A stretch of DNA of 64,000 nucleotides from Escherichia phage 4MG: the sequence record NC_022968.1, one strand, 5' to 3'. This document shows, piece after piece, positions 3,815 to 29,111 of the stretch. The translations under genes and the position numbers were made by a program. The notes below the pieces were generated by a model. The model was not told where the DNA came from, ran no database searches, and saw nothing but the letters and a program-made list of their open reading frames with translations. Each line of letters starts with the position of its first letter. Positions within the stretch are counted from its first letter, which is position 1.

Positions 3815-4432
3815 TTAGTGGTTACGGTTGATGGACTTACCATCTTCGGTGGTGATGACATTACTCTTGTCATCCATCAGGCTACCGACAGGAATTGGGT
3901 TATCAATATCTGTACCAGCCCAGGTGTTCCACCATGTAGCATCGCCAGTGCGAGGCAGACGGAAGTTGATCAGATAGTAGAGCTTGTTAGCCCACGTAAT
4001 CCAACCATCATCGTCACAAAGAACCGTTGCACCTTCATCAGGGATTGGGTAATAATACTCATCCTGACCAACGAAAGCAAGTCGTACAACCTCTTGTTCT
4101 TTGGTGGTCACTTCGAAGAAGGCCTGATAACTACGTGTGGTCCGATCCATTGAAGAGTGGAACGAAGTGATCTCAAGCACATCAGGCTCAAGTCGGGTAA
4201 CTTCCTTGATCTTATTGTCAAGGACTGTTTTCATTACCTTCTTGCTCAGATATGTTCGGTATGGGAAACCAAAGGTTTCATCAAAATACCAGTTGCCAGC
4301 CCAGATATTAAAACGTAGCCACAATCTCTGACGGAGGCTTGTCTGGTTTGACTCAATGATCTGGAGACCCGTGGAGACATCAAGGTCTCCAGTAACAGGG
4401 TCCATAAGAAGGTCAGAATAAAGAGTAGCCAT
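3815..4432 (-). CDS. putative baseplate protein (205 aa)
   Basis: ORF in tight minus-strand operon between tape measure and fibers; function by position only. Confidence 0.4.
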   Translation of the reverse strand: MATLYSDLLMDPVTGDLDVSTGLQIIESNQTSLRQRLWLRFNIWAGNWYFDETFGFPYRTYLSKKVMKTVLDNKIKEVTRLEPDVLEITSFHSSMDRTTRSYQAFFEVTTKEQEVVRLAFVGQDEYYYPIPDEGATVLCDDDGWITWANKLYYLINFRLPRTGDATWWNTWAGTDIDNPIPVGSLMDDKSNVITTEDGKSINRNH

Positions 4433-22720: not shown

Positions 22721-22786
22721 TTTCCCCGTTGATAGTTATTTTAACACCGTTCATTTTCTTTTGCAAGCTATTTCAGTAAGTTGAAA

Positions 22787-28102: not shown

Positions 28103-28133
28103 AGAAAAAGAAAAGCCCCGCAAGAGCGGGGCG
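28103..28133 (-). terminator. rho-independent terminator at downstream end of tRNA cluster
   Basis: hairpin GCCCCGC-aaga-GCGGGGC with run of T on minus strand (A-run 28105..28114 on plus). Confidence 0.6.
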
Positions 28134-28178: not shown

Positions 28179-28257
28179 ATGCGTGGATGGGAGTCGAACC
28201 CACAATTTTCGGCTTATGAGGCCAACGTGATCTATATATCCGTTTCACTAACACGCA
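28179..28257 (-). tRNA. tRNA-Met or Ile2 (anticodon CAT), extended D-region
   Basis: hand-folded: T-loop TTCGACT, anticodon loop CTCATAA, CCA encoded; D-loop about 14 nt. Confidence 0.55.
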
Positions 28258-28504: not shown

Positions 28505-28616
28505 ATAAATGTTTGGAAGCCCATACTGTCTTCCTGATCAGCCAGAATCCTTTTCTAGCATTATCATCGGCCCTGTAGATCCTATCATTAGCCAGGGGAT
28601 CGACGCCTTAATTTGG

Positions 28617-28853: not shown

Positions 28854-29040
28854 AAGGTGCAGAATTTTAATTATCCCAGATACTGCAACTGGTATCGCTG
28901 GCTAGCTAATTTGATCCGCTCTGGTCACCTCGTGTGACATTGCAGACAGGCTAACCTATTCTGCAAGAGCGTATTGGGTTTGATACGTCGAACTCATTTT
29001 GAGTGCCTTCCGGCAATTTACATCAACATATCAAATTTGG

Positions 29041-29111
29041 CGGGAACTTCCTGACTCGAACAGGAGACAACCGCAGCACAAGCGGCCATTATGCCCCTTA
29101 ACTAAATTCCC
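29041..29111 (-). tRNA. tRNA with anticodon GTG (His-type) but G73 and C37, atypical
   Basis: T-arm TCCTG/actcgaa/CAGGA on plus strand, anticodon loop TTGTGCT, CCA encoded. Confidence 0.45.

Follow-up and report, generated by a model that had tools for sequence, protein, structure and literature searches.

Conserved, partly tRNA-like RNA structures predicted in the spacers of the transfer RNA cluster of Escherichia phage 4MG

Among RNAs described from phage transfer RNA (tRNA) clusters, two from phage T4 are longer than tRNAs. The T4 genes rnaC and rnaD are encoded directly after tRNA-Arg in the T4 cluster (T4 locus L037, 2909-3047 and 3054-3172), and their products, RNAC (species 1) and RNAD (species 2), measure 139 and 119 nucleotides (nt), respectively. 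The fold of T4 rnaC is closed by a terminal stem and includes a canonical T arm as well as large internal hairpins; the roles of both RNAs are still unknown (PMC3014915). The spacers of another such cluster were analyzed here in a 64,000-nt stretch (the window) of the genome of Escherichia phage 4MG (NC_022968.1), a Seunavirus-like member of the Vequintavirinae and a virulent enterobacterial myovirus. Three spacers of this cluster, designated gaps 1, 2 and 3, probably consist of a promoter and folded RNA cassettes, most of them tRNA-derived, embedded in a mosaic polycistronic tRNA operon.

The tRNA region of 4MG is 94-95% identical to those of Cronobacter phage GAP31, Enterobacter phage EC152 and Escherichia phage LNA4 (all Seunavirus). 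Twenty-five tRNAs were called by ARAGORN, every one on the minus strand, and three more were found by Rfam only (28179-28257, 29459-29542 and 30428-30498); by ARAGORN and Rfam together, neighbouring tRNAs are mostly 1-10 nt apart. Gap 1 (28854-29037, 184 nt) lies between tRNA-Pro and tRNA-His, gap 2 (29286-29458, 173 nt) lies between tRNA-Asn and a tRNA with anticodon UUU, and gap 3 (31367-31669, 303 nt) holds two elements, 3b and 3a. An earlier, sequence-only reading had singled out three unassigned gaps in the cluster, and neither ARAGORN nor Rfam assigns them. Their limits were corrected in part: gap 1 starts at 28854 and not at 28860, and the third gap does start at 31367, but the end given to it, 31560, is the edge of a tRNA-like sequence at 31558-31667, and the stretch really runs to 31669. 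Because comparable gaps recur in relatives, they are not an assembly oddity.

No match to any of 4227 Rfam families was obtained in the three gaps at E ≤ 1, and gaps 1 and 2 were still without a match at E ≤ 10 in a 631-nt query. Rfam 15 searched at permissive thresholds (window region, short sub-query and four related loci) returned tRNA-clan and chance-level matches over true tRNAs only. Other curated RNA families (group I intron, ribozymes, riboswitches and the phage noncoding RNAs in Rfam 15) were rejected, having given no covariance-model match. The Rfam covariance search, which had been proposed as a check on the gaps, named no family there, but conserved pairing was seen in alignments of relatives. 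The suggestion that the gaps may hold noncanonical tRNAs or small regulatory RNAs survives in part, in the form of RNA structure on the tRNA strand with compensatory substitutions (strong support for 31381-31545 and 31558-31667, modest for 28979-29035), but no decodable element was found in the flagged gaps. A T-loop consensus scan agreed that neither gap 1 nor 31367-31559 has a canonical T loop. Two or three of the spacer elements nevertheless look visibly tRNA-derived. No description of these elements was found in the full-text literature, whose incomplete coverage makes this weak evidence of novelty.

The spacer most widely conserved by BLAST is element 3b (31381-31545, minus strand), an RNA of about 165 nt resembling tRNA-Pro, which extends over 31368-31558 with its A/U-rich leader-trailer helix, P0. 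It is closed by a 7-base-pair (bp) acceptor-like stem, P1 (5 bp and a bulge in the window copy), followed by a UA linker and then by P2 (GCUC/GAGC, 4 bp), which surrounds a branched insert of about 100 nt in place of a D loop. Within the insert stand, in order, a hairpin P3 with the invariant palindromic loop CUGAUCA, the conserved GAGAAUGAG and P4/P5. After P2 come one nt, P6 (6 bp, loop G(C/U)GGA), five nt and P7 (GGUG-GAGU-CACC), a 4-bp stem with a 4-nt loop that abuts the 3' strand of P1. The anticodon-type loop reads C-G-(C/U)-G-G-A-G, has G33 and can be closed to 5 nt, and no CCA is present.

Complete in Seunavirus, 3b was recognizable by BLAST over its 3' 100 nt in Phapecoctavirus (Stephanstirmvirinae) and over its 5' 64 nt in Avunavirus. 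Nine distinct versions from four lineages (Seunavirus, two types of Phapecoctavirus, and Avunavirus) were brought together in alignment A1, in which the length with flanks is 182-185 nt, though the middle is unalignable by BLAST. RNAalifold on A1 returned 45 pairs, 19 of them with compensatory changes. In the named structure 96.5% of cells pair, as compared with 38-50% when the partners were slid by 1-3 columns; changes on both sides occurred in 19 pairs as compared with 2-4 in the slid controls, and the observed values were reached by none of 500 shuffles. Many of the pairs are G-U, and therefore the structure belongs to an RNA of tRNA sense and not to DNA or to the opposite strand. On these alignments 3b is well supported as a new structured-RNA family and is predicted to be kept under structural selection, its cloverleaf-like four-way junction being retained in two phage subfamilies.

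Covariance model R1 of the 3b family found one copy per genome. Beyond the orthologues it matched tRNA-Pro of KB57 (21 bits) and of T4 (17.9 bits), with tRNA-Thr genes at the same score. With the insert deleted, the alignment of R1 to tRNA-Pro matched at UAGCUCA...GUAGAGC, at the anticodon stem with NGG, at AGGUUG and at the T stem, the D arm and variable loop being aligned as well; the T loop UUCGAGU of the tRNA is shortened to GAGU in 3b. Element 3b most resembles a proline tRNA and is probably derived from one, and because tRNA-Thr scores close, the case for proline depends on the NGG triplet and on the match in the T arm. Such a history would comprise the gain of the branched domain of about 100 nt in the D loop and the loss of three T-loop bases, of U33 and of the CCA end. 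With G33, a 4-nt T loop and no CCA, 3b is predicted to be no longer able to decode.

BLAST with the Av-05 version of 3b found Avunavirus only. Of 9 stretches returned from IMG/VR by a gapped-motif scan, 4 were real, and of 34 returned from metagenomes by the same type of scan, 6 were real by covariance-model search; both scans added close relatives only, and by BLAST, IMG/VR and metagenomes the family was not extended past Seunavirus, Avunavirus and Phapecoctavirus. PsgM04F, recorded as a Pseudomonas phage, has a Phapecoctavirus-type tRNA region with a 3b identical to that of an E. coli phage. In phAPEC8 the stretch downstream of the 3b homologue (L023 4599-4740) contains a promoter, TTGACA-N17-TAGATT, and then a long-arm tRNA-like gene of about 95 nt. 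The anticodon loop of this gene reads CUUGAAA (UGA, Ser), its T arm is canonical and G-CCA is present; ARAGORN missed it, and Rfam gave it only a sub-threshold tRNA-Sec match of 37.4 bits.

Two other cassettes found in the 3b slot of relatives (L021 1251-1416 in Mydo, with L017 and L016; L007 8124-8300 in Ro1, with L020, VIK251) are about 160-185 nt long, fold at -53 to -87 kcal/mol, are each closed by a 12-bp A/U-rich helix and have no Rfam match. Element 3b and its slot-mates carry terminal inverted repeats of 12-14 bp, which differ in sequence between lineages with complementarity kept. A miniature inverted-repeat mobile element was considered and rejected because each element is single-copy, models R1 and R2 finding one copy per genome.

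Element 3a (31558-31667, minus strand), called by neither ARAGORN nor Rfam, is a 110-nt RNA resembling a type-II tRNA. Its acceptor measures 7 bp; the D stem, of 6 bp, closes a 4-nt loop, and the anticodon stem, of 5 bp, carries the 6-nt loop CAGCCA (CAUCCA in most relatives). Every Seunavirus and Mydovirus version keeps this loop length, with differing central bases (CAG, CAU, CCU). By direct reading of the sequences, the extra arm is long, hypervariable and always paired, with conserved flanks GAAAAUA and GAAUACAUA. The T arm, GGUGG-UUAGAUU-CCACC, has a loop one base off consensus (canonical UUCGAUU in PVP-SE1) and is followed by U73 and CCA; the D arm is without GG. The fold of 3a has a z score of -3.65 relative to shuffled sequences, and its minimum-energy structure is the cloverleaf. 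Comparison of nine versions, that of Av-05 among them, showed compensatory changes in 7 of 23 pairs and no broken pair. Covariance model R3 of 3a retrieved one orthologue per genome and weak matches to all true tRNAs, the best of these being a phage long-arm tRNA-Asn (34 bits, PVP-SE1 homologue). The window's tRNA-Asn(GUU) (29197-29285, minus strand), at 89 nt, has a long extra arm, which Asn tRNAs do not usually have. Element 3a is best described as a tRNA-like RNA, for which decoding appears unlikely in this lineage.

Gap 1 contains no cloverleaf, and as a whole it folds better than its shuffles (z -3.4). Directly after tRNA-His, 2 nt past its CCA, begins module A (28979-29035, minus strand), a Y-shaped RNA of 57 nt. 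Its 13-bp stem, UUUGAUAUGUUGA/UCGACGUAUCAAA, branches at the top into the short hairpins GCC-GGAA-GGC and ACUCA-AAA-UGAGU, and the next bases are CCCA, which most relatives replace by ACCA and pEp_SNUABM_01 by UCA. The module folds with a z score of -4.8. A search of 15 sources found it in 13, each genome with a single copy; 10 of these 13 orthologues are distinct, and they come from Seunavirus, Mydovirus and Henunavirus. The module is absent from GAP31, EC152, PVP-SE1, Av-05, Hena1 and AV124. RNAalifold returned 21 pairs, none broken, and in the 10 distinct versions all cells (210/210) pair, as compared with 23-38% in slid controls. Two pairs are compensatory and two have one-sided G-U changes, and the G-U pairs in the stem argue for an RNA on the tRNA strand.

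Module B (28918-28970, minus strand) is a 53-nt three-way junction (fold z -4.3) in which GCUCU/AGAGC closes the arms UGCAGA...UCUGCA and GUCAC-ACGAG-GUGAC. This version is common to LNA4 only. By direct reading, the differences between the two phages are in loops or bulges or preserve pairing, one being a compensatory change from A-U to G-C. Other phages have at least five unrelated sequences in the slot: one in FENT2, VIK251 and Mydo, one in KB57, BIS47, KP12, Ro1 and EspYZU15, and those of GAP31, PVP-SE1 and Av-05.

The remainder of gap 1, block C (28858-28910, minus strand), is a conserved leader of tRNA-Pro. A near-invariant 24-nt sequence, AUUAGCUAGCCAGCGAUACCAGUU (28887-28910), is followed by a hairpin (28858-28887) with stem UGCAG/CUGCA and the conserved loop CUGGGAYAAUUAAAA, ending 4 nt before tRNA-Pro. 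Every one of the Vequintavirinae compared has block C ahead of its tRNA-Pro, including those whose tRNA-Pro belongs to another sequence type, and the two conserved blocks within block C are 17-20 nt apart. Four complementary versions of the stem occur (UGCAG/CUGCA, GUGAG/CUUAC, UGUAAG/CUUACA and UGUAGA/UCUACA), where the chance of such a stem is 0.14 per case for at least 5 bp and 0.04 for at least 6 bp. The stem was checked directly, the automatic RNAalifold alignment having misplaced it. As a repeated promoter or pairing partner block C found no counterpart, both conserved blocks being unique in the window on both strands. It may act as an RNA leader element, as a promoter or as both.

Roughly one-third of gap 2 is predicted promoter sequence and not an RNA gene. 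Its 5' two-thirds hold element 2a (29348-29450, minus strand), a 103-nt degenerate tRNA-like cassette. The 5' end, GGGACGA-UA-GUUU-AAUGAGGCUGG-AAAU, has the look of an acceptor strand and D arm. The T-arm-like hairpin TGAGG-gtttgca-CCTCA noted previously in this gap is present at 29358-29374; on the RNA strand it reads UGAGG-UGCAAAC-CCUCA (G55), one base off a canonical T loop, and is followed by AGAUCCC-G-CCA, a 3' acceptor strand similar to that of neighbouring tRNA-His. The trailer motif to which the same reading drew attention, AATTTGGCGG, does recur, with exactly 4 copies in 64 kb as compared with 0.15 expected, three at tRNA 3' ends (29034, 29112 and 29193) and one in gap 2 (29344). The acceptor of 2a pairs over 4-5 bp only. 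No anticodon arm was found, and 2a as a long-arm tRNA was dropped after a type-II parse of the middle 46 nt gave no anticodon stem; neither Rfam tRNA nor model R3 matched the element.

Element 2a is 100% identical in GAP31, LNA4, FENT2, KP12 and VIK251, while tRNA-Lys beside it is only 69% identical in KP12 and VIK251; therefore 2a moves as a cassette. It is absent from PVP-SE1, KB57, Ro1, BIS47, Mydo, EspYZU15 and pEp_SNUABM_01, and relatives without the cassette have a tRNA-Lys whose 3' end can be aligned with that of 2a. A short-word BLAST search for its origin gave chance 10-17-mers and a D-arm word common to tRNA-Val. The neighbouring tRNA with anticodon UUU (Lys; 29459-29542, minus strand; 50.5 bits in Rfam) has a D loop enlarged to about 20 nt with its own small hairpin; it was missed by ARAGORN, which in PVP-SE1 and EspYZU15 misreads it as a tRNA with a 4-base anticodon.

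The last 60 nt of gap 2 (29286-29345) are conserved in every relative compared. They contain a predicted internal promoter of sigma-70 type (29294-29323, minus strand) in which CTTGCAA (-35 TTGCAA) is separated by 17 bp from an extended -10, TGaTAAAGT. The promoter stands 8 nt short of the tRNA-Asn 5' end, with A/T-rich sequence upstream; transcripts would start at about the first base of tRNA-Asn. In 13 versions TTGCAA and TGATAAAGT are near-invariant and the 17-bp spacing is fixed, with variable spacer sequence. The promoter agrees at 8 of 12 consensus positions, below the cut-off of a simple scanner, and has TG at -15/-14. The 16-base pattern CTTGYAA-N14-TGATAAAGT occurs exactly twice in 64 kb, both copies on the minus strand within the cluster; the second, CTTGTAA-N14-TGATAAAGT (32157-32186), is an exact pattern match at the cluster head, about 330 nt upstream of the first tRNA (Thr). 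The upstream region that contains it, 31825-32213, is 82-96% identical in relatives. Between this promoter and the first tRNA lies a noncoding leader of about 330 nt (31825-32156, minus strand; likewise 82-96% identical, across Seunavirus and Mydovirus) with repeated words of the type TTCAAAG/AACTTTAA, where some annotations put a small coding sequence (CDS). Outside the cluster, CTTGCAAAAGAAAATGAACGGTGTTAAAAT at 22738-22767 (minus strand) has 2 mismatches to the cluster promoter pattern, shares its first 10 bases with the gap-2 promoter and may be a third promoter of the same type.

After the last tRNA stands a terminator-like hairpin (28115-28132, minus strand; GCCCCGC-UCUU-GCGGGGC followed by a U run), and therefore the spacers would lie inside the transcription unit. 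Under the favoured explanation, that of a promoter and folded RNA cassettes in a polycistronic operon, the spacers would be transcribed together with the tRNAs and would be released as RNase P and the 3' processing enzymes excise the neighbouring tRNAs. The released RNAs might then persist as small stable RNAs because long helices close their ends, as in T4 RNAC and RNAD.

Several observations weigh against this explanation. Close relatives differ in whether they carry modules A, B and 2a, none of which is therefore essential; Mydovirus and Ro1 keep 3a and have unrelated cassettes in the 3b slot. The 3b family is narrow (nine distinct sequences in four groups, with six further metagenome matches), and in the window copy of 3b a U-U mismatch interrupts the 6-bp stem P6. 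Module A, being highly conserved, has just two covarying pairs, and these come from an alignment fitted to the model. Block C forms a hairpin of low thermodynamic stability (z +0.9), whose loop carries an extended -10-like sequence, TGgGATAAT. Element 2a folds no better than shuffled sequence (z -0.6 and -0.2) and shows no sequence variation from which its pairing could be judged; a degenerate tRNA is the simplest reading of it, and it may be just a dead tRNA.

The rival that survives best, while still unlikely for the spacers as a whole, is that they are debris: decaying tRNA pseudogenes and recombination scars left by cassette shuffling and homing-endonuclease traffic. The cluster is indeed mosaic, adjacent tRNAs being 65-100% identical for one and the same phage pair, and HNH endonuclease genes stand between tRNAs in Mydo, pEp_SNUABM_01, Hena1 and Iguana, with insertions in the relatives' loci at L021 (Mydo) 3986-4423, L022 3769-4191, L072 1277-1441 and L074 1752-2147. 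From these insertions and the spread of identity among the tRNA genes it follows that the cluster evolves by cassette replacement. The presence or absence of modules among close relatives also suits debris, as do an ARAGORN pseudo-tRNA at 30264-30333 and the broken acceptor, missing anticodon arm and insignificant fold of 2a; for 2a alone, debris has an even chance. It does not suit 3b, which keeps its 45 pairs through 19 compensatory changes across two subfamilies, holds its length within 3 nt despite internal divergence and has CUGAUCA and GAGAAUGAG invariant, nor 3a and module A, in which no pair is broken.

Rather improbable is the proposal that the gaps are regulatory DNA only, with promoters, terminators or protein-binding sites dividing the cluster into transcription units. 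It accounts well for the 3' third of gap 2, a conserved promoter repeated at the cluster head, and could draw on TGgGATAAT in the block C loop, on TAAAAT at the 3b 3' end, 7 nt before tRNA-Leu, and on TTGACA-N17-TAGATT after the phAPEC8 homologue of 3b. A promoter needs about 40 bp, however, and the gaps measure 173-303 nt; covariation through G-U pairs on one strand indicates RNA pairing and not protein-binding DNA; and in block C the spacing of the two conserved halves varies over 17-20 nt, and the covarying stem strands flank the putative -10. A simple scan of the cluster detected no excess of promoter-like sites (8 as compared with 6.0 expected) or of terminator-like sites (6 as compared with 4.4 expected).

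Very little can be said for genuine decoding tRNAs of unusual shape missed by the programs. Such tRNAs do exist in the cluster: the tRNA at 29459-29542, with anticodon UUU and an enlarged D loop, was found by Rfam only, and a tRNA-His(GUG)-like sequence at 29988-30063 was called by neither program. The latter is the cloverleaf core (z -3.75) that follows a hairpin in a further 114-nt gap without a call (29983-30096, minus strand); it has anticodon loop CUGUGAC (GUG, His), the noncanonical T loop AGCGAUA and C-CCA, and the annotations of EC152 and KB57 place a tRNA-His in this slot, between tRNA-Ser and tRNA-Gln. With tRNA-His at 29038-29111, the window therefore has two His-type genes. Element 3a also has all arms and CCA, and Av-05 3a can form a 7-nt loop, UUUAUAA. 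The flagged elements nevertheless depart from decoding tRNAs at several points. A cloverleaf four-way junction is found in 3b and 3a and not in the gap-1 modules or 2a. None of 3b (G33 in a loop of 5-7 nt), 3a (6-nt loop of variable central bases throughout Seunavirus and Mydovirus) and 2a (no arm) has a 7-nt anticodon loop with U33 and a purine at 37. The 7-nt T loop UUCRANY is replaced by 4 nt in 3b and is one base off in 2a (UGCAAAC) and in 3a (UUAGAUU). A discriminator and encoded CCA occur in 2a (G-CCA) and 3a (U-CCA) and are lacking in 3b. RF00005 (tRNA) gave no gathering-threshold score and ARAGORN no call in gaps 1-3, and no Rfam tRNA match appeared there at E ≤ 1, nor at E ≤ 10 in gaps 1-2 with the short query.

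That the spacers encode small proteins is hardly credible: short CDS are called over homologous stretches in FENT2, Mydo and PsgM04F, and open reading frames (ORFs) of 25-70 amino acids (aa) in the window overlap gap 3, but the longest Seunavirus frames in 3b (60 aa for the RNA strand of PVP-SE1 and EspYZU15; 54 aa for the other strand of all five versions) drop to 22-32 aa with up to 6 stops in the other 3b lineages, length differences in 3b are not multiples of three, and its substitutions are paired and not codon-periodic. A frame check across the four lineages found no conserved reading frame in 3b; gap 1 has two 26-aa ORFs only, both on the opposite strand, and no minus-strand ORF of at least 25 aa lies wholly inside gap 1, gap 2 or 3a. 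In the annotations of FENT2 (L015), Mydo (L021), PsgM04F (L036) and EspYZU15 (L019), short "hypothetical protein" CDS cover homologues of module A, 3a, 3b and further spacers, and in EspYZU15 even true tRNAs; these CDS are probably gene-caller artefacts.

Two further stretches near or within the cluster were without a call. Between tRNA-Ala and tRNA-Leu lies another gap, of 109 nt (28505-28613, minus strand), which folds no better than shuffled sequence (z -0.35), is conserved in PVP-SE1 only (90%) and has a weak promoter-like match, ATGATA-17-GATAAT. Directly after tRNA-Lys(CUU), an unannotated tRNA-like sequence (33929-34026, minus strand) called by neither ARAGORN nor Rfam has an exact canonical T arm, GUAAGG-UUCGAAU-CCUUAC (T loop 33944-33954), an irregular acceptor and a CCACCA end, and a ribosome-binding site and ATG follow within 20 nt.

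As to what the cassettes might do, 3b and 3a may tentatively be regarded as tRNA mimics, not decoded, that would bind a host or phage tRNA-binding protein. For the smaller modules a role in precursor processing or in stability is equally possible. A more speculative proposal, and a doubtful one, is that 3b, and perhaps 3a, are exapted tRNA decoys binding and neutralising a host factor (for instance, a defence nuclease that cleaves tRNAs) that reads the shape of a tRNA or its NGG anticodon stem, or alternatively that they recruit a tRNA-modifying or tRNA-processing enzyme. In the decoy proposal the palindromic loop CUGAUCA could, with no better odds, serve as a dimerisation or protein-binding handle. 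If true, decoys of this kind would constitute a new class of RNA-based counter-defence within phage tRNA arrays.

Phage tRNA clusters are usually annotated as tRNAs and "hypothetical proteins"; here unannotated or misannotated stretches hold conserved structured RNAs, and standard tools miss several real noncanonical tRNAs. As a second set, unrelated to the T4 RNAs, found in other enterobacterial phage groups and marked by a clear tRNA-Pro-like core and strong covariation, the spacer RNAs suggest that noncoding RNAs derived from tRNAs may be a recurring feature of such arrays in phages, and they offer a new system for testing what the RNAs of phage tRNA clusters do.

Compared with known systems, 3b shares with tRNA-Pro(UGG) of KB57/T4 type the four-way junction, the UA linker, the D stem GCUC/GAGC within UAGCUCA...GUAGAGC, the single nt at position 26, the 5-nt variable loop, the T stem abutting the acceptor and NGG at the anticodon; it differs in the D-loop insert of about 100 nt, the 4-nt T loop, G33 and the lack of CCA. 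Element 3a keeps every arm of a tRNA and CCA and differs in its 6-nt anticodon loop and in a D arm without GG, and no spacer element reaches any Rfam tRNA score.

The 6-bp D stem with a 4-nt loop and the long extra arm of 3a are also reminiscent of tRNA-Sec and allo-tRNAs, and the Av-05 version gave a sub-threshold match to RF01852 (tRNA-Sec) of 29.4 bits, as compared with a gathering score of 47, with no match for the window copy. In tRNA-Sec and allo-tRNAs the acceptor and T stems measure 8/5, 9/4, 8/4 or 9/3 bp. Unlike tRNA-Sec, 3a has acceptor and T stems of 7/5 bp, the loop CA(G/U)CCA and no UCA anticodon, and the resemblance is a lead, not evidence of membership. YrlA (RF02553), a noncoding RNA with a tRNA-like domain that acts by protein binding and not by decoding, offers a likeness to the mechanism proposed here; the sole YrlA match in the region (22.6 bits, E 0.3), however, lies over true tRNAs, and no Ro-binding stem was identified.

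With regard to T4, covariance models R1, R2 and R3 searched against the T4 locus matched T4 tRNAs only and not rnaC or rnaD. Unlike RNAC, 3b is without a canonical T loop and has its extra domain in the D loop. Unlike the T4 RNAs, the spacer elements occur in unrelated phage groups (Vequintavirinae and Stephanstirmvirinae), and are modular. RNAC and RNAD are nevertheless the closest analogues, being encoded, like the spacer elements of 4MG, within a phage tRNA cluster and on the tRNA strand, adjoining tRNAs and longer than a tRNA.

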